This document shows positions 3,759 through 64,000 of a DNA stretch of 64,000 nt, one piece after another. The stretch is taken from NCBI GenBank assembly GCA_951406725.2, contig OX597821.1, positions 9,982,001-10,046,000 on the forward strand, written 5' to 3'. The first letter of the stretch is position 1. Each line of letters opens with the position of its first letter. The notes beneath the pieces are model-generated. The model was not told the origin of the DNA. It did no database searches and saw only the letters and a list, made by a program, of their open reading frames with translations. This DNA comes from Octopus vulgaris. Its lineage: Eukaryota. The translations under genes were made by a program, and so were the position numbers.

Positions 3759-3918
3759 ACCCATGGAAGAAGCAAACACTAAGTCATGTGCACAATTAAG
3801 TACCGCAAATACATCAAAATAGAAATTCTCCAGCCAAAATGGGCTGGAGAATTTCTATTTGGATGTATTTGGGGTACTTAATTGTGCACATGACTTAGTG
3901 TTTGCTTCTTCCATGGGT
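3759..3918. repeat. near-perfect hairpin (77-bp arms, 6-nt loop), probable inverted Penelope-like pseudo-LTR
   Basis: 3759-3835 is the reverse complement of 3842-3918 with 2 mismatches; flanked by (TA)n/(TG)n; degenerate hammerhead motif adjacent at 3671-3724 (-). Confidence 0.85.
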
Positions 3919-6499: not shown

Positions 6500-9400
6500 T
6501 AGTTTCAGTCCCACGACTGTGGCCTTCCTTAGGCACCGGCGTTTACTTTGCTACACTTTCATTAAACCTCCTCTGATCTGTGACATTTGGTGGGTGAGGG
6601 AGTTCGGCGTTGCTACTCTCATCTGTGTTTCGTTCCTAGAACAAATGACAGAAGGGGATCTCGTTTTGTTTTGAAAATGCCTACATCCACACCATGCAGG
6701 TCAGCTCAGGATTTGTTGGGGTAGGGATATTGAAGTGTTCTGGGCCTTTGAAGCATTCGCTCCTGTATCCTGATGACAATGATGGACTTGTGTTACCATG
6801 CAGTAGCGCCGCGTTCAGCTGTTTCTGTAAGTGAAATTGTCAAAAATATGGAACAAGATTCTCTAGGAGTCTTTTAGATGTATATTACTATACAATTGCC
6901 CCACCTTCACTCCAGTCAGTAGAGTTTTAAGTCTCCCATTAGATGACGCGTTGCATTGTATCGATCTTCCTTGTGTAGCTTTGCTGGATCGCGTCGTGTT
7001 CCATCGTTAGTTTTACAGTTTTTGGTGACCACAGTTAGGTGCAGTACTCCAGATAGCCGAGAGCAGTCTTCTAAAAGACCATCATGGTTTCCTTTCCTCT
7101 TATGAGGAAAGTTCGAAGGACCATCCGTCCAGACGTCTGCATTTTATTGCCAACTTGGTGATGTGCACCTGGAAAGATGCACCATTACCCATGCCAAGCC
7201 CAGGTCACGCAGTGATGTTCTTTCAGGGATTGGAATCCCTCCTTGGCCAGCGAATTCTATCTGCTTTTTATTCAGCTTCCTGTGTTGGTAACGCAGCACT
7301 TGGAATTTTTGCAGCCTTAAACTGTATGCTATTTTCCTTAGCCCACTTATATATTGCGTCCAACTTACTTTGCAGATGCACAGCGTCTCCAGGGTTCTGT
7401 CTCCTGTGAGAGACTTTTGTATGATCTGCATGTCTAGGAATGTACTAGAGAAGCTGCTGCCATGTCAGAGAGGGCCATTATGAATAGCCGTGGCTCCAGC
7501 TCAGTGCCTTGTGGAACACCGTTCATCATTTGTGTTTTCTTGGGGCTGTCCTGATTGATCACCACTACTTCATTTCTACCTTTTAGAAAGTCATGCAGCA
7601 ATTCTCCAAGCTTTCCAAGTATGCCAAAATTACGAAGCTTGTGACAATGCATACCATAGTCGACTTTTTCAAAGGCTTTTGCCAAGTCGAGTTATATCAC
7701 GTCAGCATTTGAGTTGCTTAGCAGCTGCTTTAGCACCCAACCATAATTTTTACAAGAGCTGACAAGCAACTTCTACCTGGTCTGCCGTGCTGGGTGTTAT
7801 TCGGTAAGTCATTCTCTTCGAGGAATGCAATTCATTTCCTTCGGACTATTCTCTCCATGACTTTGCTGCTCTGCTTCCTCCTTTATGGATAGGGCATATT
7901 ATTCCCTTCTTAATTTGTCCGGGAGCTTACCATTTGGGAAGCTCTGAAAAAGCAGTTGCAATGGCTTTGCAATAACTCGTTTGCATGACTTGAGGACGAT
8001 TGCTGGGAATCCTTCATAGCCAGCAACTGAGATTGCTTCCATATCATCTATTGCTAACATTACATCGTTTTCTTTGATGTTGATGTAATCAGTTGTTTTT
8101 GCATCTCGCTCAGCTTCTGTAGCGGTAAAGAATTCTACGGGTATGCTAACTTGCATGTGCTGTAGGGGTGGGTTGAATAAACTTTTGAACTTTTTTTTCA
8201 GTACCTCACTTATCCTCAATGGGTTTCCTGCGAGGGAGCCATCATTTTGGAGGAGTGGCCCTACTCTGCAATGCACAGACACAATCTCCTTGGCGTACCT
8301 AAAGAAAGCTGTAGGGTCTGATTTTATATTTCTTATGAACCAGTCTTCTCTATTTGATCACTCCTTCTTATGGAAGTGCTTGAGTTGTCTCTCAATCTCT
8401 CAATCTCCAGCAGCTCTGATTCCAGATAGAGTTTCTCACTGCCGATGAGTTCTCTGTTGAGGTAGTTTGCAAGCTTTGCTCACCATCTCATAGGAACTTA
8501 ATTCTCCCTAGGAATCTTGTTTTTATATGCAGTTGTCGTTCTCTCTGGAACAAAGTTGAGGCTTATAGCTTGCATTACGGACATTATCCATTTCATGTCT
8601 ATGTCTGGTGTAGAGAGACACAGAGAACAGTCCTGTTTGGTGATCTCTTTCTCAGTTAATTTCCAATCTGCTTTGTGGTAGTTCAGAATTTATAGGTTTT
8701 AGGTGCTTCTCATAGGCTTCATGTCTGTGGGTTCTTTTGGTCCATACATTTTTGTGATCCGAGATTAGTGTCAGAGTCACTTTCATATTATGGATGGGAT
8801 CCTCATTGTTTATGAAGCAGAAATGAAATATATTGTTTGTCCTGGTTGGTTGGAGTATTATTTTCTCCATATATGATTTGTTGAGCAGGGTTTCCACCTG
8901 GCTTTGCTCACATCGCATCTTTCCTCAGAGTAAAAATCCTTCGAGCGATTTAACATTGGGCAGGTTAAAGTCTCCCATATGAAGTACACTGATGTATTCT
9001 TCTATTTTGGTTTAGAACTCTTCTATTCTTGCAAGGCAGACTTCGAATAGGCCCGTGTGATTTGGCGCATCTGGTGAGAGGTAAGTAGTACACATAACTA
9101 TGTCGAGTTGTCTTATATGTACAGTTAGTGTGTCACACAGTGAGTTTGCGAGGGAAAAAAAGATCTGAGGTGTGAGATCTTCACGGATGTACATTGCAAC
9201 TCCTGTCTTTTCTATCGTTTTGGTATTTGTATTTCGGTATCTGCGATATAGGATTTTAAGTATGTTTTAATACGTGTTATGCATATGGCTTGATTGCATG
9301 TCACTGGGTCTCTCAGAAAAGTAATTTTTGTTGAGTTACTGAGTTGTAACAGTCCTCTTACATTTATGAAGTATATTGGTGTTACCTTTGTTCTCATGCC

Positions 9401-17258: not shown

Positions 17259-18863
17259 CAGTTGCGAGCAAAATGTTCAGAACGGCATTGTTTTCGCCAG
17301 AAAAGTAGGTATAAGTTTTTATCAAAACTTTAATTACACGATAATTACAATATTAATTATTATTGTCTGAGATTTTGGTGTAATTTGAGGGGATAATACA
17401 AAAGTTATGGATGATTTAGTGATCTTCTGCCAAACCCATGCCGGCCAAAATGATCAGAACGGTTGCTTTTACTCTGTGTTTTAGTATATTTAACTGGCGA
17501 TCTCTAATGTTTTGAATTTGTTTACGTGATGGTTCGTTTGCTAAGCATTAGTAAGAATATCTGCAGTGCACCTTGTTAATATAATGCCATTTACTCCGTT
17601 ACCAATTCGTCAGCAGATTATTAAGCTTCGAAAGAAAGATAATTTAAGTATTGGGTATATTGCAAAGATTGTTAACAAGTCAAAAAGTATTGTTCACGGT
17701 ATTCTTAAGGTCTTCGATGATTGTGGTTCATGTAAAGCAAGAAAATCTACAGATAGGCCAAGAAAAACGACCAAGAAAGAAGATCGTGCTATGGCAAAGT
17801 TGGTTAAAAAGGACAGATTTAAAACTGTTGCTGCTGCTGTTTCTCGGGAAATGAGCATTATACTGAAGAAAACGTTATCTCGAAAAACTGACTCTCATCG
17901 TTTAGTTGAACATAACCTACAAGCAAGATCACCTGCAGTGAAGCCACTGATCAGCTCCAAAAATAAAAAGTGTCGTCTTACCTTTGCAACCGAACATGTG
18001 TTGTGGTCTCAAGAAAGATGACAAACGGTGCATTTCAGTGATGAATCTAAGTTTATGTTATTTGGCTCAGATGGGAAAAGTAGGTGAAAAGTAAGTGAAA
18101 AATTGTCGCCTAAATGCCTTAAGACTAGTGTTAAATTCGGTGGAGGAAGTGTCATGGTTTGGGGAATGATATCTGGAGATGGTGGGGGCTCTTTGGTGCG
18201 ATTACATGGAAAGGTAAATGCAGGAGTTCATAAACAACTTGTAAAAGATCATGCCTTGCCTGTGCTGAGAAATTCAACTAAGCAACCACCCATATTCATG
18301 CAGGACAATGCCCCATGTCACAAGGCTAAGGTGGTCATGAACTTCCTCAAGGCTGAAAAGGTTATTGTTATGGATTGGCCTGCTCAAAGCCCAGATCTCA
18401 ATCATATTGAAATTGTGTGGAATATTCTAGAAGAACGTTTGAAAGCCAGAAATCCTAAAACAACCGAGCAATTATGGAATGCCCTTCAGGAAGAATGGAA
18501 TAAGATCACCTAGCAAGAAATTGAAAATTTAATTTCCTCATGCAGTCGAAGATGTCAAAGTGTGATTGAAGCTAAAGGGCTTCACACTAAATATTAAATA
18601 ATTCCAGTATTCTCCGTCATTTTTGATTATTTTATTTTTCAACAGTTCTGATCATTTTGGCCGCCATGGGTTTTGCAGTAAATCACTAAATCATCCATAA
18701 CTTTTGTATTATCCTCTCAAATTACACCAAAATCTCAGACAATAATAATTAATATCGTATTTATTGTCTGGGAAAGTTATTGAAAATAAAACAACTTTGA
18801 TAAAAAATTATATCTACTTTTCTGGCGAAAACAATGCCGTTCTGAACATTTTGGTCGCAACTG
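17259..18863 (+). mobile_element. full-length Tc1 (DD34E) transposon with long IR/DR-type inverted repeats
   Basis: TIRs 17259-17460 and 18645-18863 starting CAGTTGCG, TA flanks; each TIR carries two direct repeats CAAAATG(T/A)TCAGAAC. Confidence 0.95.
17584..18597 (+). pseudogene. Tc1 transposase pseudogene
   Basis: HTH region (IAKIVNKSKSIV..RPRKTT), FSDES, KFGGGSVMVWG, QDNAPCH..WPAQSPDLNHIE (34 residues between D and E); stops at 18019 and 18511 and a frameshift near 18080. Confidence 0.95.
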
Positions 18864-23964: not shown

Positions 23965-24163
23965 AATAAGAAATTGGAGGGGATCAATAGGTGGTTCATC
24001 AACTTTTAGACATTATATTATTTTATGTCAATTTATTTATTTATTTATTTACTAAAATAACAATTACAAGAATATACATACATGTATAACATATTATGCT
24101 TTACCTATAAAATATATAATGATACCAGTAATTATTAAAATATAACATACGGGAATATAAATT

Positions 24164-24435
24164 GGGAAAATATCTTACAGCTGTTTCAGTCAAGAGGCAA
24201 AAATACCTCATTCTACTGTTATTCCTCCAGTAGACTGAAGTAATTAGTAGATGAAATTGAGGTACTTGTGTGTTCCTCTAAGTCTTGTCAGAGATTTTGG
24301 AAAGTACCTGACGTATCCTAGATAAACACCCAAGTACCTCCATTTCATCTACTAATTACTTCAGTCGACTGGAACAATAATGGTAGATTGAGATATCTTT
24401 GCCTCTTGGTTGAAACAGCTGCAAGATATTTCCCC
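24164..24435. repeat. long hairpin containing two degenerate hammerhead copies
   Basis: 24164-24274 is reverse-complementary to 24325-24435; both arms end GAAAC-AGCT-G(T/C)A-AGATATTT, with CTGACAA/CTGACGT near the apex. Confidence 0.8.
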
Positions 24436-24723
24436 AGAAAGAACAATAACCCAACAACCGGTCCTTGGGTGCAAGGTTGTGCTTGGTGGTGGTACGGTTC
24501 TCCTCTGTTCGAAAATATAAGGATACAGAATGTCTTTGTGTCATATAACCAGTTGAAAATCATGTTTCCTGGGGCTAAATAATAGTGACATTCGTCCCAT
24601 CCTGGGAGTTCCATATTACGTTGGAAAAAGTCATTGCTTCATGGTGCTGTTACTGTAAATCTCTCTTTGGAAGATGTAGAAATAATATTTCAAATATATA
24701 TATATATATATCCGCTCTATGCA

Positions 24724-26050: not shown

Positions 26051-27114
26051 TTATTTATTCATTTATATATATATATAAAGGCAGTGCTCCAGCATGGCAA
26101 CAGTCAAATGGCTGAAATAAGTAAAAGAGTAAAATGGAGTATATATATACACATACATATATATATGTACATATGTTTCTGTACATTTATGTATATATAT
26201 ATGTGTGTGCGTGTGTATAGTTATTGCGTTGCTTCAACATAGTATTGCGATAGTGTATGAATGCGAGTGTTCATAGCTCTTTGTATAAAATTTGATGAGG
26301 ATTAAAATTCTCTGCATAAAGGCTAAAAGTCTATGCAAAGTTGAAATCTTATAATCTGATATAACACGTTTAACCAGGTAAAGTATAATGAACATTAGAC
26401 AATAACATAGGTACAGAGTAAAACAAATATGCATATATGAAAGTTTCTTTTTTTGTGTGTATGTGTGTCTGCGTGTGTTTCTTTTGAAGTTTGTTGCCGG
26501 TATAAAAAGTAATGTAATTTTTTTCAAAAATATGTCATATCTTCCTTTATGTTATACTTGACGCCACTTTTCTCATAATATTTTTTCTACTTTTGTCTGT
26601 CTCTATTATTCCTTTAAGCACTGCTTATGTGTCATACATGTAACAGCTTCTATTAGCGGTTGTTGATTTTTTCTTTGACATGCGTCGCCTCTTTCACTTT
26701 CATACTTTTTCTTGTGATTGTTATGTTAACCTACATGTAACAGAGTGCATCCAGCAATAAAAAGAAATAGGACGCGCAAGAAAAATGAATGAGAAAAAAA
26801 AAAGAAGTAATTAGAAATGTGATAATGTCAACTACATATTCCCAGGAGAGAAAAAAATAGTACCATCGGGTTGGATGATATCAACGAACAAAGAGTAGAA
26901 AACAAATTGGTGAATCAACTGTATAAAACTTTGCAGTATGTCAGGTAGTAAGATATATGCGAGATGGAATAGATCAATAGATATTTCAATTAACGTATAT
27001 GGATAAGAATAATAATGTTAAGACGTGTATCCATATAATTTATACAGAATATTCAAACATATAAAGAAATGAAATACACAAATACACAGAGAACAAGGTG
27101 TCATCATACAACTT

Positions 27115-27781
27115 TTTTCCTCCTTTGTACGGCCACACCTTGAATACTGCTGCCCACTGTGGTCTCCTCACACAAGACAAAACATCTCCAGAATTGAGTC
27201 ACCCCAGAGGGCACTCACTAAACGAATTGAAGGCATGGCTGCTCTCGATTATTGGGATCGCCTTAAAGCCTTGAAACTTTACTCCCTCCAGCGTCGCCGT
27301 GAGCGGTACATCATTTGTACGATGTGGAAAATATACCGCCAACTTTGCCCAAACGACCTAAACATTAGCTTCAAGGTTCATCCAAGACTGGGACCACGGG
27401 CCATACGTCCCCTGCCCAATTCAAGATCACAACATACATGTACACTGCAACATAATTTCTTTTCCTCAACTGGCCCTGCCCTATTTAACATTGTCCCGAG
27501 GGAGATCAAAGAGGAAAAGGATCCCATCAACTTTAAACGGAGTCTGGATAGATTCCTTCAAAGAATACCAGATAAGCCACCCATAATTGGATACAACTCG
27601 CCCAACAAGAACTCACTACTTGAACAAAACTGGATACAACTCACCCAACAAGAACTCACTACTTGAACAAAACTTGACTTAAACAGGATTCGAATAACCC
27701 TATCAGGTGGTGCTATTAAGTTAGACATGGCCTGGACCAATCTTTGGTCGAAACATATCTAAGTTTATGTAAGTCTAAGTT
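27115..27781 (+). mobile_element. 3' end of CR1-like LINE (5'-truncated)
   Basis: VRPHLEYCCPLWSP..YWDRLKALKLYSLQRRRERY..GPALFN..FKRSLDRFL; short TCTAAG-repeat tail; family mate at 56270-56825. Confidence 0.9.
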
Positions 27782-42946: not shown

Positions 42947-43600
42947 TATAATGGAGAAACCTGCTTATTAATTAGGGGTGTAAGAATTACTAAGAGTAGT
43001 AACAGAAAGTAATATTAAAATTTTGACCGTGTGGAAATATTTTTATAAATTCATGTTCTAAGCAATATTGTATGATTTCGATATGATTTCTGCAATTTTT
43101 GAATATTTTAAACTCCAAATTCTTGCAAATTTAATTATTCATTTCATTCACTACGTCCAATCCTTCATAAACCTAAATATTCATTGTATTCACTGCGGAG
43201 TAGATTTTAATATTGAACACTCTTTACTATATAACATTCACTATATAACATTTTAATAAACACCATTAATCCGTTGCAGGTACTCATTCTAGCTCGCCTC
43301 TATTTCCATGAACGATAATTTAACAGTAGCTATAGAACATTGATACGAGACTCAATTCCAAGAATATCATCAGTTTCCGGAGTTTGCTCAATTAATTTTT
43401 TGTTATATTACTATAATTTTAAATTGATTTTGTGTTGAATGAACACATGCTATTACACAAAATAGCTGTATAACTTTGATATGAGGCACAATCTGAAGCA
43501 TATTTCCAGTTTTCGGAGTTTGTTAAATGAATATTTTTGATAAAATGGAGATGTACTTGCATAGCAAGTTACCTGATCTGAGACCGTGCACTGAAACAAA

Positions 43601-43892
43601 AACAACAGTTGCAGGGTGGAAGGTGTTTATAAGCCATTTAAAAACACACAGAAACCGTTAGATTCAAATCAATATTTAAATTTAAGTTGCCAAAATATTT
43701 TCGTCGTTTTCAGACCGGGACCTATTCCCTGACCTGTTCCGCGCAGCACGGAATATTTTTTCAGTAAAGAGGTCCCGGTCGAAATGCGACGAAAATATTT
43801 TCACAAATTAAATTTAAACGTTGAAGAGAATCTTACGGTTTTTGCGTATTTTTATATGGCTTATAAACACCTTCTACGCTGCAATTGTTGTT
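43601..43892. repeat. long hairpin (~130-bp arms) with hammerhead-like motif at the apex
   Basis: 43601-43732 is reverse-complementary to 43761-43892; each arm reads ..GGTCCCGGTC..CGAC-GAAA-ATATTTT. Confidence 0.8.
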
Positions 43893-43939
43893 CTTGATGA
43901 AATGAAAATTCTTTAATATACCGGATATATATATATATA

Positions 43940-45240
43940 TATTAATGAAGAAGTGATACTGTCGGTATGGCTACTTAGCGCTATAAGCCTTACAACAATA
44001 ACTATCTGATCCCTGCTATTTCTAGCATGCTTAACAAGATAGTTCTTTATGAGCTTTCATTTATATATAATATGCGACTGAAAGAAGAAAATTTAGCAAC
44101 AAAGGCACACCGGCAGAGAGACAAGACGGGCAACTGAATCAGATGCAAAACGACTGAAACAGATCTCTGAATATCCACGGAAACGTGGACGTGATTCTCT
44201 TTCCGCTACGCATGACTGACAGGTCGAGAGGAGAATAATGATGCCAAATCACAAATTGTTGATGGAGCACTAAAGAGATCTTTTCTTTGTGATCATATGG
44301 AAGTAGTGGAGTTGACAACTAATCTAAAACTGCTTATGGACGGTCAGTCATTTTGATGAAAGAGAGTTTGCTAATTACGTTCTTGATGCAGGAAATGATA
44401 ACATTTCTGTTGTACAAAGCCTAGGTGAATTCAAAATCGAACTAACCAGTGACCTTTGGTTTTGAAAGTGGTACTCTTACAGATCTATGGGATTTTGTAT
44501 ATGCTGGCCTAAAAGGTACCTTCATAAACCCTGTGTGGCTTGCAAATACAACCATTATTAATCTAGCAAATGAAGCTGCACCATTTGTGAATGATTTTCT
44601 GTTGTCCAAAATCGCCGGTGAGCTAAAAATATACTGAAGTTTAGGTACAGTTGATAATGAAACTGTACACAATCGAATTCATAAAAGAACTTACACCATC
44701 AGCGTTCTTAACTAATGGACGTTGCAATGGCACAAGCTACATCATTGTCAGTTTAGATGACCATGTTAATTAGGTTGAGGCTGCTTTTGGTCCTTATGCA
44801 GGGTCAATTCTGCTTGTCCCAAGAATATCATATGTGTCTCAAGAAGTGGATTTTCCATTCACATTCACATTTACACGCAAACAATTTCTTATCAAGCCAG
44901 CTTTTGCCTTTATGTGCTACAAGGCGCAGGAACAGACTTTTGAATAAATTGGAATGTATCTTCCGACGCAATTTTTCTCACTTTGTCAGGTGTATGTTGC
45001 ATTATGTAGAGTTCAAATGTCAACTAATTTTTAGAATATTGGCTGAGAGAAAGGGAAACGGTATGATTACAGACAATTGTGTCAACAAGGAGATAATACT
45101 TAAAAGCAAAATATGCTTTCCAGCAAGTTTCAGTCAATAGAATTAACTCATAAATTACATGTAAAGAAACATGTAATATTTGTGCGGAATTACACTGTTT
45201 TGGCATATTTTTAAACATGCCGAATGAATGATATAGTTAT
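43940..45240 (+). mobile_element. Helitron remnant (PIF1-like helicase fragments)
   Basis: IVDGALKRS..VELTTNL; FTFTRKQFLIKPAFA..KAQEQT..IGMYLP..QVYVALCRV; NCVNKEII. Confidence 0.7.
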
Positions 45241-45710: not shown

Positions 45711-45772
45711 TAAAAACGGCAAGATAACAAAAGAAAGAAAGAGACCTCAATATTATGTAAATAGAGGAAATT

Positions 45773-45973
45773 TATCTGTAAAATAATATGTGACAATTAT
45801 TCAAAAGCCAAGATAAAACTCTGAGTTTCGGATGCCGAGGTGGAAATCCACAACACCATCTCTTCGGTTATCAGGCCAGATAACCGAAGAGATGGTGTTG
45901 TGGATTTCCAGCTCGGCATCCGAAACTCAGAGTTATATCTTGACTATTGAATAATTGTCACATATTATTTTAC

Positions 45974-45978
<5 letters not shown>
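45773..45978. repeat. near-perfect hairpin (100-bp arms, 6-nt loop) built from two head-to-head hammerhead-like units
   Basis: 45773-45872 is reverse-complementary to 45879-45978; unit reads GATAA-CCGAAGA-GATG..CATCC-GAAACTCAGAGTT-TTATC. Confidence 0.85.
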
Positions 45979-46017
<39 letters not shown>

Positions 46018-46222
46018 TATTGAATTTCCAAATGTCTCAGAGAGACATAAGCAGTGGTGGGTTGATATAGTGGTTGTATACTGTCAACTCAACGTGACAG
46101 TCCCGTCAAGGGAATCACCTCACCGCTATTTAGCCCTAGGAAGCTTCGATACTTCCTGTCGGCTTTGATACATTTCCTGTGTCCTTATATTTGCAAAGGG
46201 GAGGCAAACACCCCCACCAGTT

Positions 46223-46290
46223 AGGACTAGCACTTGAAGACATGCATGTTTCTGAGTCTTGCTCGTCATCAGTCCAGGATAGGAAGTCCT
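46223..46290 (-). ncRNA. type I hammerhead ribozyme with intact catalytic core
   Basis: AGGACT-TCCTATCCTGGA-CTGATGA-CGAGCAAGACTCA-GAAA-CATGCATG-TC-TTCAAGTGCT-AGTCCT: bulged stem I, GAG/CTC stem II, palindromic ACATGCATGT stem III, GUC site at 46241-46239. Confidence 0.8.
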
Positions 46291-46472
46291 TTTCTCTTTA
46301 TTATAGGCACAATGGCCTGAATGCAGAGGGGACATAACAGTACAATATAGGACATGGGCACATATAAAAAAATACAGAAAGGATGATTTGAAATGAAGTA
46401 TTAACAATGAGTTAAATGAAATGGCTTACGAGTCCCCCAAAGCTCACAGTTTGTTTTACAATTACAGTTATA

Positions 46473-47855
46473 TTATTCGGGGTGTTCGTCAGTAATGTAA
46501 ACGAGTAATTCCTCCTGCTCTATAACGCAGGGCAAACTGTCATATCGAACGTAGTGCGCAATGCACACAACTGTATTTGGAAACAAATTAATTAATTTTT
46601 TTACCGTCTCATTATCTAATATTACTGCTTTTAGTTCGTTATCGTATATCCTCGGGTTCAATTTCACTCTCGTTAGACCTTTCATTATCGCTAATTTTTT
46701 CTCGATTTCTTTATCTTTTCGGTACAACATTACAGCTCGGAAATTTCTTCCTTTGGGTCTTCCTCCTTTCTTGCATTTTTTCAGATATTTTTCCACATTT
46801 GTTGACCATATTTCTATTTCCTCCAATCTTTGACCTTCACTCAATTTATTTGTTGTATTTTTCCTTTCGGGTGCTCGCTCCTGTGTCTCGTTGGCAGACT
46901 TCTTTTTTGTTTTTTTCTTTTTTTGGTCTTTGGGTGCTGATTCCACCCGTATTCGCTTTCTATCCTCTTTTTCTTCTGTTCTCTCCTTTTCTTTCTCCTT
47001 CTCTAGCTCGTCGCCACTTTCCATATTATCTGTTGTCATGATTGTTTTTCGCGCTTGTAGTTCTACATTCTCTCTTTCTAACTCCCCTGTCAAAGCTTTT
47101 ATTCCTTCCTCCAGGTTTATCATCTCCTCTTGTATTTCTCTTTGAGGACACACATCTTTCATGTGCCCTCTGCTCTTACATTTATAACACACTGGAGGTC
47201 TCCCTTCCACCACGACACTCAGTCGTTTCTCATCGGGGAACACCAACTCCTCCGGGATGTTGTACAAATCTGGCAGGGTTATGTGGATTAGGGCTTCCAC
47301 CGCATAACCCCACCAGTTTATTTCATTCGACTTTTCCATCTTCAGTATGTCCACGTCCTCCTTGCAGTTATAAATTATTGCAGCTGCTATTCTTTCGGTA
47401 TCAAGTTCCGGTGGAATTTTACTTATTCGCACCGTCACCGCTCGTCTACCACAGTAAGTAGGTAGTAATACCCACTTATCTGATCTCAACGCTGTCGTTG
47501 CATTCCTTTTTGCGTCATCTTCACTTTCGAAGCGAACGTCTACTGTTGCGTATTTTCTACCTCTATTGTAGGAGGTAGTTCTTTCTTTTATTTCTTGTAA
47601 ACACTTTCCAATTTCTTCCACTTCTGCCACTTCTATTCTTTTTGAGACCACACTCCATGTTCTGTATGTTATCGTTTTTTTCTCTGCTCTTTTCACTTCG
47701 TCTTCTGATGGTGTAATCCTCAGACAGTCTCCTTCCTTTTTGAAGCTGTCATAGTATTTCCCCAGATTTTTCTTCTCAATAATTACTTCTTTTAACTGTA
47801 ATGCGTCAGCAGACAGGCTTTTGCCTGCTGCTTTCGCATAAGTCCGGGCTTGCAT
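46473..47855 (-). CDS. intact Tx1/L1-type ORF1 protein (RRM-like region, CCHC zinc knuckle, K/E-rich tail), 460 aa from ATG
   Basis: Uninterrupted ORF; TYAKAA N-terminal motif, VTVRISKIPPEL, LSVVVEGRPPVCYKCKSRGHMKDVCP (C-x2-C-x4-H-x4-C); AATAAA at 46302-46297; no ORF2 follows. Confidence 0.85.
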   Translation of the reverse strand: MQARTYAKAAGKSLSADALQLKEVIIEKKNLGKYYDSFKKEGDCLRITPSEDEVKRAEKKTITYRTWSVVSKRIEVAEVEEIGKCLQEIKERTTSYNRGRKYATVDVRFESEDDAKRNATTALRSDKWVLLPTYCGRRAVTVRISKIPPELDTERIAAAIIYNCKEDVDILKMEKSNEINWWGYAVEALIHITLPDLYNIPEELVFPDEKRLSVVVEGRPPVCYKCKSRGHMKDVCPQREIQEEMINLEEGIKALTGELERENVELQARKTIMTTDNMESGDELEKEKEKERTEEKEDRKRIRVESAPKDQKKKKTKKKSANETQERAPERKNTTNKLSEGQRLEEIEIWSTNVEKYLKKCKKGGRPKGRNFRAVMLYRKDKEIEKKLAIMKGLTRVKLNPRIYDNELKAVILDNETVKKLINLFPNTVVCIAHYVRYDSLPCVIEQEELLVYITDEHPE

Positions 47856-48295
47856 ACCCAACAAAGAATTCAACAATTATAACGTTCAACACAAAGCAAC
47901 AGTTTTCAACAACAATATGCAACAACAAAATTCAACTCAAAACCGCTAATCCAAAAAACCGACCCAAACATTCCCGCGAGAGGTTACCATCTAAAGTAGC
48001 AAGTCGTGCTAGCTGAGATGGCTGCAACCGCTTTACAAATATAGGATATTTTCAGTGAAATGTATTCACTGATCACAAAAATTAGAAATATTGAATTTCT
48101 AAATGTTTCAGAGAGACATGAGCGGTGTTGGGGCGATATAACGACACAGAAAATGTGTCAAAGCCGACAGGAAGCGTCGATGCTTCCTAGGGCTAAATAG
48201 CGGTGGTGTGATTCCCGTTACAGGACTGTCACTTTGAGTTGACAGTATACAACCACTATATATATATATATACATAAATACGTACATATACACAC

Positions 48296-48358
<63 letters not shown>

Positions 48359-49505
48359 AACGTATATATATGTGCTTGCATGTATGTTAGCCTGAATGTA
48401 CATATGTTATGTATGTATGCATGTATGTATATCAGTACCAGTAGTGACGTCAAATAATTTCAACCGTACATTATTACGTCATTTTTCCAGAATCTATAAA
48501 GATGTTATCGTAAACATAATTTTGTCGATATATAATTCATTCTTGTATGCTTTGTCCAATTGAAATCTGGAAATTAAAAGAGAAAATGTCTAGAAATCGG
48601 GAGCGAATTTTTAGTGAAATTAGTCTCTAAACTTTTAACTGTCCAGCGGAAGAAATTGTTTGACATTGACCGATAGAAACATACCTATAATTTCTATAAA
48701 ATCTACATAGCAAAGGAGGTTATAGGTAATAATTGATTTTCCTGTCGTAATATCCGCGTCTAGATATTTTGCTTCTGACAATTTCTCACTGTAATTTAAC
48801 CCATCTTGCTTGGCGTGCACCTACTGTTACCCGAAATTAATTTTAGTTTTTGTGTGATTTGATGCATTAATTTATGTAATTTATATGAAGTTTACCCCCG
48901 TTTATATTCGCTAGATTAGCATTTCCCTTGAACTTTGTTTTTTACAGCTGCGATGTTATTGAATAAAGACCTGTTACAAAATGCTTATTTCTTTATTTTA
49001 AGTACACGCGTTCGCCTGATCAAAACTGTTCATTTCCATCAGCTTTACGGAGTGGGGTTCATATACCTAATTATTTCCTTTACAGCTGTTGTGGATTATC
49101 TTGATTGATGCTCACTTCCTTAAATAAAATTTGCAACACATTTCAAGAGATTAAATTATTAAATTTGAATTATTTTATGACATAAAAATGGTCGAAACGG
49201 ATAACGGTAATTACATAATGAGAAATTTGGCCCATTATATGCAGCGAGAATTTCATTATATTAAATGAGGGATGGATACTTCAGTAAACATTGCCTTTTG
49301 GTAAAACATGCAAAAATGTAAGAGAGGATTCATTGTCTAATATTTCATAGAATTTAACTGTTGCTTGATCACTTTTATATTTCAATTTTGTGCAACTGCT
49401 CATATCAAAACTTCCTGATACTGCTCTTTCGATTAGAGTATTTTTATATATGCTATGCAAAACAATGTACTTTCGGTCAGAAAGACTATTCAAATTCTAA
49501 ATAGG

Positions 49506-52925: not shown

Positions 52926-53303
52926 GCGGTTATAACTAGGTTTCAAACTTCTTTAGCAAATAAAATAATTTGCTAGGCGAATTCTCATCTGCAACCGTGC
53001 CTTAACAACTAACATAATTCAAAGACAAATAACACGTGTCTCATCATTATATGTTGTAATTTTCCAGAATTCACCGCGCAAGCGCAATTTCAGTCAGCTG
53101 TGGATAGATGATGCCGAGCTGATCATCGAAAATACTAAGATCACATTCGAATATATATATATTCATTGCCGACTGAAACTGCGTTTGCGCGGTGAATTTT
53201 GAAAAATTACAACATATAATGATGAGATACGTGTTATTTGTCTCTGGATTATATGTTAGTTATTAAGGCACGGTTACTGATGAGAATTCGCCTAGCAAAT
53301 TAT
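52926..53303. repeat. long hairpin (~135-bp arms) ending in a hammerhead motif; probable pLTR of the Penelope copy at 54678-55600
   Basis: 52965-53098 is reverse-complementary to 53168-53303; - strand CGGTTG-CAGATGA-..-GAAA-CCTAGTTA-TAACCG, + arm retains CGGTTA-CTGATGA. Confidence 0.8.
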
Positions 53304-54677: not shown

Positions 54678-55600
54678 TTAGGCATTTAGATTTGTGGTAG
54701 GATTTGAATGTGTGAATAAACGGTGACTGTACGTGCTTAGTGCCGCATTATGTTTATTTATCAGTGTTGGAGAGTTGTGCTTTAATATTGTAAGCGCCCC
54801 CGTCAGGCAAAGCCCGCAGGTTGGGCGTTGACCTCGGTAGGGAAGTCCTGAGTCCAGTATGGACCACGTTAAATTATAGGGTATATTTTTATTTTTGAGA
54901 TGATGTATGTGGTTGGCAAGTGTTGCAGATTTACTATGTTTGTTGCATCTAAAAGAATGTAGGTGAGCGGCATATCGTTGCTTAAATTTTTTGGTTGATT
55001 CTATGTATATGGCTGGAGAGTTGTGTAATAGATTAAGAACATTGCATTTGTAAATTATATTATATATTCCGCAATGGGTTTGTAACAGGCAGATGATTCC
55101 AGGACGGTAATTACAATTAGGTGAATTTTGGGGATTGTGTGCAGAGATGGAGGAGGTAATATTGTCACAGGAAAGGTTAGAGAAGGGGGTAAAAAAATTT
55201 AGATTATTAGTATTGTTAACGTTATCATTACCATCATTGTTACTATTACTTATGTTGTTATTAATTGTACTATTTGTAAGTGTGGTAGAGATTGTGGTGG
55301 TGTTCCGGGCAGTGTCAGTAGCAGGCGTTTGGTTTTTGTTGTGGTCTAATTTAAATGTATCTATGCTGGAGCTGTGTGTATTTTGAGTGTTCGTATGGCT
55401 AGAGTTGTAATTATGTGAGTTTTCATAGCAAAGAGAAAGCTTTTGCTTATTAGAGGCTACTACAATAGATTCGAAATTGGGTGGGGTACAATAGGATAGT
55501 TTCAGGGTCGATCTATTAAAGATAGAATGATATTTATGTTGCCCATGGAAGTTAGAGTCTAGTAATTTAAAGAAGGATTTAGCTAAGTTCTTAACGTTAT
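54678..55600 (-). pseudogene. Penelope-like element 3' ORF fragment (RT thumb, linker, GIY-YIG endonuclease; Nematis-like)
   Basis: HKYHSIFNRSTLKLSYC (thumb), CNYRPGIICLLQTHC linker, IIYKC..IYIESTKKFKQRYAAHLHSF..LANHIHHLK..WSIL..CGLCLT..LINK; 5'-truncated at (TA)n. Confidence 0.85.
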
Positions 55601-55603
55601 GTA

Positions 55604-55654
<51 letters not shown>

Positions 55655-55676
55655 GTATGTATATGTATACGTATGA

Positions 55677-55707
<31 letters not shown>

Positions 55708-56269
55708 GGAAACATATGATTACTATTTTGGTGGGTTCGATTATGTATCGGGAAATATCGGGAACTTCTCATTTACATGAGAAGATATAGCTGTCATGGT
55801 GGAAATTGTAAATAAATTCTCCGCGAAGAGCTTTTAATTAAATCGAAGTGAGATAGTGAATTGTCTGGATATATTGTCTCAAAATATGTTGGAAGACCAT
55901 CAGGTCTGGCATGCCTACAAAATAGGTTTCCTCGATCTGGTTTGACGTGATTTTAACAATGAAGAAAATCAGCTTCTCATCACGGAAATAGATATTGATT
56001 TTCAGTCAATCGATATACACCAGTGAGATCATACTGCGTCATCATGTAATTAACAAAGCCAAAGACTAGCTATCATCTTCTCTGGGATAAAAATATTTAA
56101 ATCATAGCAGTTTTTAATTAGTATCCATGTTCAAGAGAATCATGATGTTTGATTTCATTAATAACGCGTGAAATAAAAGTATCGAAACAGCCGTTAGAAA
56201 TTGTTAAATTACAGAGCAAAAGAAAGAACTTCAAGAAGATGACGAGATATCAATAGATATACAGCTACA

Positions 56270-56825
56270 TATACTTAGATATGTTCCGACCAAGATTGGT
56301 CCACACGGTGTCTAACTTAAGAGCCTGACAGGATTAGCTAAATCCGTTTTAAGTCAAGTATTGTGCTATCATGGTCCAGTCGTATAGGGAGTCCTTGTTG
56401 AGAGAGTTTTATCCAGATGTACGTGGCTTATCAGGTATTCTTGAAGAAATTTGTCCAGATTCCGTTTAAATGTAATGGGATCGTTTTCCTCTGTGATCTT
56501 TTTCGGGACAGTGTTAAATTGGACAGGGCCTTTTGAGGAAAAGAAATTGTGTTGCAGTGTACTTATGTGTTGTGATTCTGAATATGGCAGGGGATGTATG
56601 ACCCATGGTCCTATACTTGGATGAAGCTTGAAGCTCATGTTGAGGCCGTTTGGACAATGCTCGTAGTATATTCTGCTTGTCGAGCAAATGAAGTATCGCT
56701 CACAGTGTCGCGAGAGAGAATAGAATTCCAATGCTTTAAGGTGGTCACGTTTGATCATGATCATTCATACCCTTAATTCTGTTGGTGAATGACATCTTGG
56801 ATGATTCAATTTTCGAAATGTTTTG
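56270..56825 (-). mobile_element. 3' end of CR1-like LINE
   Basis: LKALEFYSLSRHCERY..LQHNFFSSKGP..FKRNLDKFL; same family and same 3' terminus as 27115-27781. Confidence 0.9.
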
Positions 56826-62049: not shown

Positions 62050-64000
62050 ATCACGTTGCACCTCCAAGGGCATCCATTCACGGTGATGCCCTCAATCTTA
62101 ATTATGTGTGTATAGCTCACATAATTCGTCTGTGGCAGACGAGATTGAGAATTTTTATGCAACCCTTCGTTCAACTATTGAGCAAGTACCTCTTCATAAT
62201 TTTCTAGTTATAGCTGGTGATCTGAATGCTAGACTAGGACCCGATGAGACCAAGTTTACTTTCAACTCTAAAACTAATCGGAACGGAGAAATGCTCAAAG
62301 ACTTGTGGGAGGAATTTAATCTCTACACTTCCAACAATTCTTATGAAACCAAAAGGTCAACTTTGGACATTTGAGTCCTCACTTGATGATAGGGCACAAA
62401 TTGACAACCTCATCTTTCGAAAGAAATGACGCAATAGTGTTAAAGACTCGAGATCCTACTCTTCCTTTAGTTCTGTCGGCTCTGACCACAGAATTGTATC
62501 AGCTACCGTTAAGCTTAGTCTTCGCTCATCCAAAAAAGCTAAGCTTCACCCGATGAAAATGATCCACTGGGAGGAAGTCTTATCTAACCCCGATTTGTCC
62601 AAACAATTTACTATCGAGGTCTATAACACATTTCAATCTCTGTCTACTTCTGAAATAGATGCTGAGAACATTGAAGGAGTATACATCAGCCTCATCAAAT
62701 CAACAGAGGAAGTTGCACTGGCTACTCTTCCCAAAAGGAAGAGTAGGGGCCAGAGCAAACCTTCTAATTCCCCAAATGTCATCGAAGCCAGAAACCATCT
62801 AAAGTCTATATCACTAGCTTACCACCTTTCTCCATCCCAGTCACTGAAGATCCAACTCATAGCTGCCAAGAAGAATCTTGATGAGGCTTACTTGAACGCC
62901 GAGGTCGACTTTATCAATGACAAAATTAGTAAACTATCCAAAGTACACATTAGTAAAAAACACCATCTCGCCTGGAAATCCATCAAAGACCTATCAGGCG
63001 AAAATTCTGGGTCATCAATTAGAATTAAAGGGGGATCAGCTAAGAAGCGTTTAGAAAATTGGTCAACCCATTTTAAAAACCTCCCTGGGAAGAATGCCAA
63101 AATCCCTGATAACCCCACTCTTCCAAGTGTGCCAATATCAGACACGCTGGACATCAACACCTCCCCTTTTACCATATTTGAACTAACAGCAGCCACCAAG
63201 CAACTAAAAGCCTCGAAAGCATTTGGTCCCGACAACATCCCAGCTATAATTTGGAAGGATGATAGATTTCACACACTTTTGCTCAACCTCTGCAACCACA
63301 CTTTCCATCTTTGTCGCTCCCAAGATTTGGCACCAATCTCAAATCATTCCAATACCAAAAAAAGGCCATTTATCCCTCGTCACCAACTACAGGGGTATAT
63401 CTCTAATGTCAATTGCTGCAAAACGGTACAACAAACTGATCCTAAATCGTCTTGTCCTTTTTGTTGAACCTTTGCTCCGAAAGAACCAAAATGGATTCAG
63501 ACATGGGCGCTCAACGCTGAGCCAGATACTATGCCTACGCAGACTTATTGAAGACACAAAAGCATTTAATCGCGATCTTGCAATGGTATTTGTAGACTTT
63601 TCTAAAGCGTTCGATTCTGTAGATAGGTACAAGATGTTTGAAATCCTTAAGCTCTATGGGATACCAGACAAAATCATTTCTGCCATCAAGGTCCTCTACA
63701 CAGATACGTCTTCAACCATCTTAACCCCTGACGGAGAAACATCATCTTTCTCAATCAAAGCCGGAATACTGCAGGGAGACACACTCGCCCCATTTCTTTT
63801 CATCATTGTTGTTGATTATGTGCTACGTATGTCAGTTGATACCAACTCTGGCAAGGGTTTTGAAATAAAACCAAGAAGAAGTTCCAGACACCCAGCTGAG
63901 TACTTGACAGACACTGACTTTGCTGACGACATCGCTCTTATCAGTGATTCTCTCTCCAATGCCCAGTCTCTTTTACAATCTCTTGAACAAGCCTCAAATT
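62050..64000 (+). mobile_element. RTE-group LINE, APE-RT ORF with frameshifts; continues past the window end
   Basis: ENFYATL..IAGDLNARLG, QIDNL, SDHRIV (APE); KAFGPDNIP, NYRGISL, QNGFR, FVDFSKAFDSV, GILQGDTLAPFLF, FADD (RT). Confidence 0.93.

Follow-up and report, generated by a model that had tools for sequence, protein, structure and literature searches.

A hammerhead ribozyme on the minus strand of the window (that is, of the whole 64,000-nucleotide stretch of Octopus vulgaris DNA analysed here) lies just behind the poly(A) signal of an intact ORF, and the question raised by this locus is whether the ribozyme serves to end the mRNA of that ORF or belongs to another element in which the ORF has become cargo. 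The hammerhead most likely marks a PLE-type (Penelope-type) end and is not a device ending the ORF1 mRNA. The arrangement as a whole is best explained, with a probability of roughly 0.58, by a non-autonomous Penelope-type, retrozyme-like unit of ~354 nt, whose ribozyme this is and which took in a 1.7-kb polyadenylated cassette for a predicted RNA-binding protein of the LINE-ORF1 type, the composite having been copied into (TA)n by Penelope enzymes in trans.

First of all, the motif is a genuine type I hammerhead. The core elements CUGANGA, GAAA and NUH and the three stems, by which membership of the class is judged, are all present (as listed in Table 1). A type I descriptor run over both strands of the 64 kb matched this site only, compared with a mean of 0.01 matches over 100 block-wise dinucleotide shuffles. 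The sequence-only reading had named an intact CUGAUGA/GAAA/GUC core, a palindromic stem III suited to dimeric cleavage and a stem I whose internal loop is closed by AGGACU/AGUCCU, and all of these were found as described, an 8/6-nt internal loop separating the distal and proximal helices of stem I. Its placement of the ribozyme about 60 nt behind a poly(A) signal and in the sense of the ORF is likewise correct: AAUAAA is 58 nt upstream of C17 and 6 nt ahead of the first ribozyme base. When the UTR was shuffled 5,000 times, this hexamer arose in the last 30 nt in 1.3% of cases and anywhere in the UTR in 9%. The Rfam check which had been proposed gave nothing, since no family reached gathering score anywhere in the 64-kb window and the 25 matches at E ≤ 10 in 45900–48400 do not include a hammerhead model.

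Table 1. Features of the hammerhead element, in positions of the window, and domains of the encoded protein, in residues.
Feature	Position	Strand	Remarks
Type I hammerhead	46223..46290	-	descriptor match and fold
Stem I, distal	46290-46285 / 46228-46223	-	AGGACU / AGUCCU, 6 bp
Stem I, proximal	46276-46273 / 46238-46235	-	UGGA / UUCA, 4 bp
Core CUGAUGA	46272-46266	-	
Core GAAA	46252-46249	-	
Stem II	46264-46262 / 46256-46254	-	GAG/CUC, loop CAAGA, 3 bp
Bulged C	46265	-	
Extra A before G12	46253	-	
Stem III, palindromic	46249-46240	-	ACAUGCAUGU
GUC	C17 = 46239	-	cut 46239/46238
(TA)n microsatellite, element 3′ end (target)	45977..46009	.	sequence
Tail, segment B, ~60 nt	46010..46069	-	direct copy of 48140-48081, 7/60 differ; start of a next unit
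End segment A, 126 nt	46065..46190	-	inverted copy at 48136-48261, 12/126 differ
AAUAAA, then GAGAAA (46296-46291)	46297..46302	-	likely 3′ end of captured cassette
Cassette 3′ UTR, U-rich, 182 nt	46291..46472	-	ends AAUAAAGAGAAA
Intact ORF, 459 aa	46473..47855	-	predicted LINE-ORF1 type
Cassette 5′ UTR	47856..47982	-	putative boundary
Decayed copy of first 26 nt of hammerhead (46290-46265)	47983..48007	-	17/26 columns identical
Unit start	48008..48140	-	B copy (48140-48081) and leader
Inverted, 5′-truncated copy of segment A	48136..48261	+	without tail, without hammerhead
TA-rich microsatellite, other end (target)	48262..48355	.	sequence
Protein: two predicted RRM folds	about 47-136, 133-220		residues
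Protein: CCHC knuckle	221-237		residues; followed by long helix, charged linker
Protein: C-terminal domain	about 339-430		residues

One part of that description stands in modified form, namely the closing of stem II by a C-A pair. The apposition of C46265 and A46253 exists, and a closing pair directly before G12 is absent, but the same bases can also be read in the PLE style, as a bulged C46265, a canonical G10.1-C11.1 pair (46264/46254) and an extra A at 46253. PLE hammerheads are described, in the excerpt available of PMC4209133, as having an unpaired base between A9 and G10.1 together with a G10.1-C11.1 pair. The octopus copy shares with them the extra nucleotide, the pair, the palindromic stem III and a low expected activity; it differs in the added A before G12, in its short 3-bp stem II and in a long two-part stem I, which is like that of canonical retrozyme ribozymes and unlike that of the PLE hammerheads of that excerpt.

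The hammerhead sits inside a 2.25-kb insertion in (TA)n, which on the minus strand consists of an inverted 126-nt end copy, then one 2,071-nt unit, and then the ~60-nt tail. The inverted copy stops before reaching the hammerhead, so that the locus has one hammerhead only. It has been reported that PLE insertions show an inverted 5′-truncated copy, an optional tail and a (TA)n target (available text of PMC8557442 and PMC3846280); judged by its sequence arrangement, the locus carries this PLE signature, all three marks being present. With the hammerhead near the end, the likeness extends to the insertions in the excerpts of PMC8557442, PMC3846280 and PMC11167929, and the differences from these PLEs are that the octopus element has neither RT nor GIY-YIG and that its tail is ~60 nt long, not the usual 30–40 nt, the latter being a point against the best explanation. 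The only ORF in the element is of the RRM/CCHC type; no second ORF was found in the 3′ UTR, and no RT or GIY-YIG ORF in the whole element, which is therefore non-autonomous; no autonomous partner with the same ends came to light. According to the excerpt of PMC11167929, the tail of a PLE in vitro reflects two internal RT start sites, insertion proceeds without need for hammerhead cleavage, the authors found no reads starting or ending at the cut site, and the PLE hammerhead concerned cleaves only when protein is present. In a transcript starting upstream of 48140, segment A is predicted to pair with its inverted copy at -207 kcal/mol.

The protein encoded by the ORF is predicted to be of the LINE-ORF1 type with the order RRM-RRM-CCHC. 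An RRM directly before a CCHC defines one class of LINE ORF1 in the available text of PMC3905857, and here two predicted RRM folds stand directly before the CCHC knuckle. The structure model has a mean pLDDT of 73.6, with 82–95 in blocks across residues 21–270; Foldseek gave 15 matches at E ≤ 0.001 (best E 3.5e-5), those listed being RRM proteins, and VIA also matched RRM proteins (best Z 8.6, rmsd 2.9, 83 aligned). Atlas rows at 0.88–0.92 include ZCCHC3 RNA-binding domains and CCHC, zf-CCHC was recognised in 14 of 23 aligned members at E ≤ 0.1 with the window copy below the curated cut-off, and a sequence search of the PDB gave matches to the zinc knuckle and to low-complexity stretches but to nothing else. 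HAL1 elements consist of an ORF1 only, and the octopus cassette resembles them in having an ORF1 without ORF2.

The HMMER library search yielded 432 relatives at E ≤ 0.001, whereas word-index searches for proteins gave either no match or a single protein that was already known. Twenty were looked up and ten have names, of which nine are octopod (Octopus bimaculoides, O. vulgaris, O. sinensis, Argonauta hians), the tenth being a plant knuckle-repeat protein that matches the knuckle region only. No ORF2 with APE and RT lies downstream of the ORF at the locus, and a search among longer proteins for the ORF fused to an RT, itself a weak search, came back empty. LINE ORF1s are separate ORFs, so a missing RT fusion does not settle the origin of the ORF. 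Assignment to a LINE clade is tentative, the ZCCHC3-type Atlas rows reaching just 0.88–0.90 and none of the 72 relatives scanned (from 168 stored, the remainder mostly <200 aa) having an RT or endonuclease domain. Tx1 would be a plausible donor, because Tx1-clade elements target other transposons (excerpt of PMC4494074) and because recently active L1-Tx1 (13) and PLE (31) families occur side by side in O. vulgaris (PMC13282606). Of the majority differences that the 40 listed substitution rows (out of 623) show in the ORF, 4 are synonymous and 16 non-synonymous, the neutral expectation being 0.27; no purifying selection is therefore visible on the window copy, which looks like drift though the frame is intact.

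Several further observations concern this protein family. The C-terminal alpha/beta domain (window about 46840–46570, minus strand) had no usable Atlas match and is common to 8 of the 168 stored relatives, and distant relatives show a similar L-x-x-x-F-P-x-D-V ending of it. In other copies, a +1/-1 indel pair at 47042 and 47051 keeps the frame. At about 4845–4260 (minus strand) lies a second, decayed and truncated family member (profile i-E 1e-20, tblastn matches to 20 stored relatives), followed by TA-rich repeats and with no hammerhead core nearby. P0063, P0072, P0105, P0116, P0136 and P0151–P0165 form a distinct clade on ENA contigs; one cluster in it, with 28 members on contigs of up to 1.1 Mb, is likely a young multicopy family in another eukaryote, and alignment of this clade against viral and metagenome contigs gave no confirmed loci.

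The repeat end also occurs without the gene. In an X4 contig, a joint 46290→48046 lets the leader run straight into the hammerhead and skips the gene, the 33 intervening letters matching leader 48040–48008 at about 25/33 by eye, and an X5 contig with a joint 46278→47996 skips it also; these are two single contigs, of which one has a short side of just 28 letters, while for the other the letters between its sides are given as not known. Taking the two joints as boundaries, removal of a 1,692-nt cassette would leave the 354-nt unit, and it has been reported that mussel retrozymes measure 350–390 bp (excerpt of PMC7229834). No tandem of the short unit was seen in the contigs from X1, X4, X5 and X9.

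At the place independently marked by these joints, the leader (48007–47983) repeats the first 26 nt of the ribozyme. Among the element's 1,756 25-mers this one scores highest, at 17/26, and of 5,000 random 25-mers drawn from the window 2 do as well; the repeat is likely, from its sequence and position, a target-site or template-switch duplication. Together with the A-rich end AAUAAAGAGAAA, which is no true poly(A) run, this duplicate may be a mark of LINE-type retroposition at the locus, and the direction was probably capture rather than deletion. The duplicate differs at 9/26 positions and segments A and B, pooled, at 19/186 (binomial P 0.0007, Fisher P 0.002). The duplicate is thus more diverged than the A/B repeats, which date from the insertion, so that the capture is likely older than the window insertion and the composite would have moved at least once. 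That the leader might contain a complete but decayed second ribozyme was considered and rejected, the unanchored local alignment being no better than shuffles (1,305/2,000), and only the anchored 26 nt of likeness stand.

The duplicate and the A-rich end also bear on the opposite history, in which an ORF1-like gene, a hammerhead and a PLE end would form a long-standing octopod element, gene-less units would have arisen by deletion, and the protein would package or chaperone the RNA and its ribozyme; such an element would be a retrozyme with coding capacity, or else an accessory unit within a split PLE system, comparable to the accessory ORFs of Terminons. The family is large and divergent, some of its members keep the C-terminal domain, no RT fusion was seen, the Logan contigs encoding P0011, P0030, P0078 and P0166–P0168 are 1.7–1.9 kb, near the unit size, and the protein-dependent cleavage described above would suit a chaperone. 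The 26-nt flanking duplicate and the A-rich end, however, resemble an insertion scar, and the decayed ORF remnant at about 4845–4260 has no hammerhead core nearby, though it is broken at its 3′ end. This history is regarded as rather unlikely. An equally doubtful extension of it is that octopods harbour long-lived protein-coding retrozymes, ~2-kb units which would encode their own RRM-RRM-CCHC chaperone, pass from tandems to monomers or circles, borrow a Penelope RT/endonuclease and have their ribozyme refolded by the protein; such a lineage would be an endogenous counterpart of delta-virus-like RNAs, or else a split PLE whose nucleocapsid comes in trans.

The age of the duplicate bears on another account, namely that a HAL1-like ORF1-only derivative of a LINE jumped, perhaps site-specifically as Tx1 does, into a retrozyme already at this locus, so that the composite itself never moved. 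The preference of Tx1-clade elements for other transposons would fit, and so would the occurrence of the UTR and ORF in several diverged contigs, none of those listed running on into the element ends. A duplication made after the PLE insertion should, however, have diverged no more than A and B (10%), and the observed 9/26 makes this account improbable.

The copies examined are contigs from four of the 24 runs listed, X1 and X4 (organism A), X5 (B) and X9 (C), none of them recorded as an RNA run and X1 being of unrecorded kind, with a likeness threshold of 80, and the counts are numbers of contigs, not copy number. Joints from 46192, 46212, 46225 and 46233 to 48136–48181 are inversions at other truncation points, each in one contig, the 46225 joint being seen in two runs. 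In X4, 17 contigs have loose ends that pass from 46065 into TA-rich sequence without a tail (agreement 0.59). Variants at 46062–46063 appear in 33–52 contigs per DNA run, against 1–29 contigs at those of the listed positions in the ORF and UTR that show a variant; within the UTR, 46411–46473 has other letters in 3–12 contigs per DNA run. None of the 40 substitution rows listed, out of 623, falls inside the ribozyme. X1 contig 2 spans the ORF, AAUAAA, the hammerhead and A (46166–47051) with 15 other letters and 2 gaps and may be an allele of the locus; the listed bridges from cassette to end are X1 records 2 and 5 and X9 record 32 only, all near-identical to the locus, so that they too may be its alleles, and no diverged contig among those listed links the cassette to the element ends. 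In addition, a loose end in X9 (3 contigs, agreement 0.71) carries a ribozyme variant with the 6-nt palindrome ACAUGU and the 3′ arms UCUG and GGUCUU. Its 5 changes in 10 paired 3′ positions can all still pair with the 5′ arm of the window copy (P about 0.024), which gives one-sided support for stem I, as the 3′ arms alone of the variants were read.

Two observations on the copies stand apart. In a deep X1 contig, the listed differences cluster in 46557–46696, some of them common to the majority of the DNA runs, which hints at recombination between copies. Within the window, 24439–24698 (plus strand) is a 5′-truncated, ~60%-identical relative of the 3′ half of the hammerhead, A and the tail, which ends in (TA)n and whose score was reached by 0 of 465 random segments; at the stem III position it reads ACCGGU-C-CUUG-GGUGC, that is to say, a different palindrome, with a decayed core and possibly also an A ahead of the decayed GAAA. 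The pattern of the element end had 0 matches in metagenome contigs.

According to the preferred reading, in which a Penelope-type repeat took in the cassette, the cassette would have reached the 5′ arm of the ribozyme either through insertion of the LINE type, possibly that of Tx1, or through template switching by an RT, with ~26 nt duplicated in the process, and AAUAAA would thereby have come to stand just upstream of the hammerhead; this capture would have preceded the window insertion, the duplicate being far more diverged than the insertion-age repeats. Two fates would then be expected for the RNA: polyadenylation within the ribozyme would give an ORF mRNA without the mobile end, and uncut read-through RNA would retain both A and the tail. 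Cleavage by the ribozyme at 46239 would likewise strip these two, so that only uncut read-through would carry the internal RT start sites and is likely the template for PLE enzymes in trans. A precedent is the pLTR-framed host-gene cargo moved in trans in Adineta vaga (excerpt of PMC3846280). The likely job of the ribozyme, inherited from the short repeat, would be the trimming of tandem precursors, mainly as a dimer or with protein help; with one ribozyme at the locus, no circle would be released from it alone, unless it is transcribed as a tandem.

For the monomer, the active hammerhead fold is predicted at -5.6 kcal/mol against a minimum of -16.2, and for the dimer the double hammerhead at -27.9 against -40.0 kcal/mol for the best two-strand fold. 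Pairing probability is high solely for distal stem I (0.64–0.88), and in the predicted ground state the core is paired with stem III and the 3′ strand of stem I, aided by the repeated CAUG. The stem III duplex between two copies reaches -13.3 kcal/mol. The folding models leave out tertiary contacts, so the energies suggest cutting that is weak and dependent on a dimer or on protein, not zero; this copy is predicted to misfold and probably cuts weakly.

These predictions bear on the proposal of the sequence-only reading that self-cleavage at 46239/46238 could define the 3′ end of the ORF1 transcript or give a circularisable unit, in competition with polyadenylation. The last point holds as a conditional one: a poly(A) site usually follows its signal by 10–30 nt, and poly(A) addition behind 46297 would land in the 5′ arm or core of the ribozyme, which would make the two events mutually exclusive. 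A ribozyme kept for ending the mRNA or for making circular RNA would also fit the sense orientation and the spacing, the duplex which two stem III copies can form, and the tolerance of a mismatched stem II base: the axolotl hammerhead with such a mismatch still cleaves, 22% in 1 h as a monomer (excerpt of PMC7229834), and cleavage is not abolished in U10.1-U11.1 variants (PMC3088659). Against it stand the single ribozyme at the locus, by which the circularisable unit as it was stated falls, the predicted misfolding as monomer and dimer, and the presence of the same PLE-type end without a gene. Since the repeat end occurs without the gene, the best explanation for a ribozyme at this distance from the poly(A) signal is the place where the cassette went in, not selection to end the mRNA, and a dedicated mRNA-end device seems a poor prospect. 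A non-autonomous DIRS-type element, which the 126-nt inverted ends and the CCHC protein might recall, is hardly credible, since B, the internal end copy, runs in direct orientation next to the left end where the internal complementary region of DIRS is complementary, the left junctions vary among copies in their truncation points where fixed inverted ends are expected, and neither RT nor tyrosine recombinase is present.

Among known systems, the metazoan non-LTR retrozymes share with the octopus unit the type I hammerhead, the palindromic stem III, the weak stem II base and PLE-type ends (excerpts of PMC7229834 and 10.64898/2026.07.22.740005); the putative gene-less unit, at 354 nt, would lie within the about 170–400 nt of retrozyme units. 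In the same excerpts they are tandems with two or more ribozymes and are described as non-coding (10.64898/2026.07.22.740005), whereas the octopus locus combines a single ribozyme with a 1.7-kb coding cassette. Canonical PLEs have no RRM/CCHC ORF1 according to the legend of Fig. 1 in PMC8557442. Compared with the pLTR-framed cargo in the available text of PMC3846280, the octopus cargo differs in being an ORF1 of transposon type which is multicopy, brings its own poly(A) signal and sits at the 5′ arm of the ribozyme. With Tx1 in Tx1D (excerpt of PMC4494074) it shares insertion into another mobile element; it differs from LINE ORF1 elements in that its ORF ends in a hammerhead and PLE end, was likely moved by PLE enzymes, and has an extra conserved C-terminal domain. 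The Terminons of bdelloid rotifers also link accessory ORFs to hammerhead-bearing PLE ends, but they are telomeric, giant and equipped with RT, whereas the octopus element is 2 kb long and internal, in (TA)n, and an RRM-CCHC gene is not among the accessory ORFs listed in the available part of PMC6431247.

A hammerhead in a PLE-type end is ordinary; its combination with an ORF1-type gene is unusual. In the literature searched, no description was found of an ORF1-carrying composite of retrozyme or PLE, or of an octopus hammerhead; Repbase, Dfam and the O. vulgaris consensus library, which were beyond this scope, may include the family. The words 'hammerhead' and 'ribozyme' are absent from the text and supplement of the O. 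vulgaris repeat paper (PMC13282606). If the composite is a family, it would mean exchange between LINE and PLE systems, would account for part of the many 'uncharacterized' octopus gene models as mobile cargo, and would provide a natural pair of ribozyme and RNA-binding protein for asking what role the PLE hammerhead has and whether it needs protein help. Should the composite be unique, it would still be a neat case of nested retroposition.

The window also holds other remnants. A decayed ORF at 54678–55772 (minus strand) gave no Pfam match, no likeness to the ends of the hammerhead element is listed for it, and by eye we take it to resemble the linker and GIY-YIG end of a Neptune-type PLE. 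The segments 62430–63999, 27073–27666, 56369–56764, 7899–8357, 17545–18513 and about 44200–45100 resemble, by eye, pieces of LINE RT, Tc1/mariner transposase and Helitron-type helicase, two of which gave no match when searched with Pfam. Finally, five fold-back palindromes (45770–45981, 43597–43896, 24163–24436, 52965–53303 and 3759–3918) are 79–95% complementary, the first of them abutting the (TA)n of the hammerhead element, and could represent truncated ends of other PLE families in head-to-head arrangement, or else MITEs.
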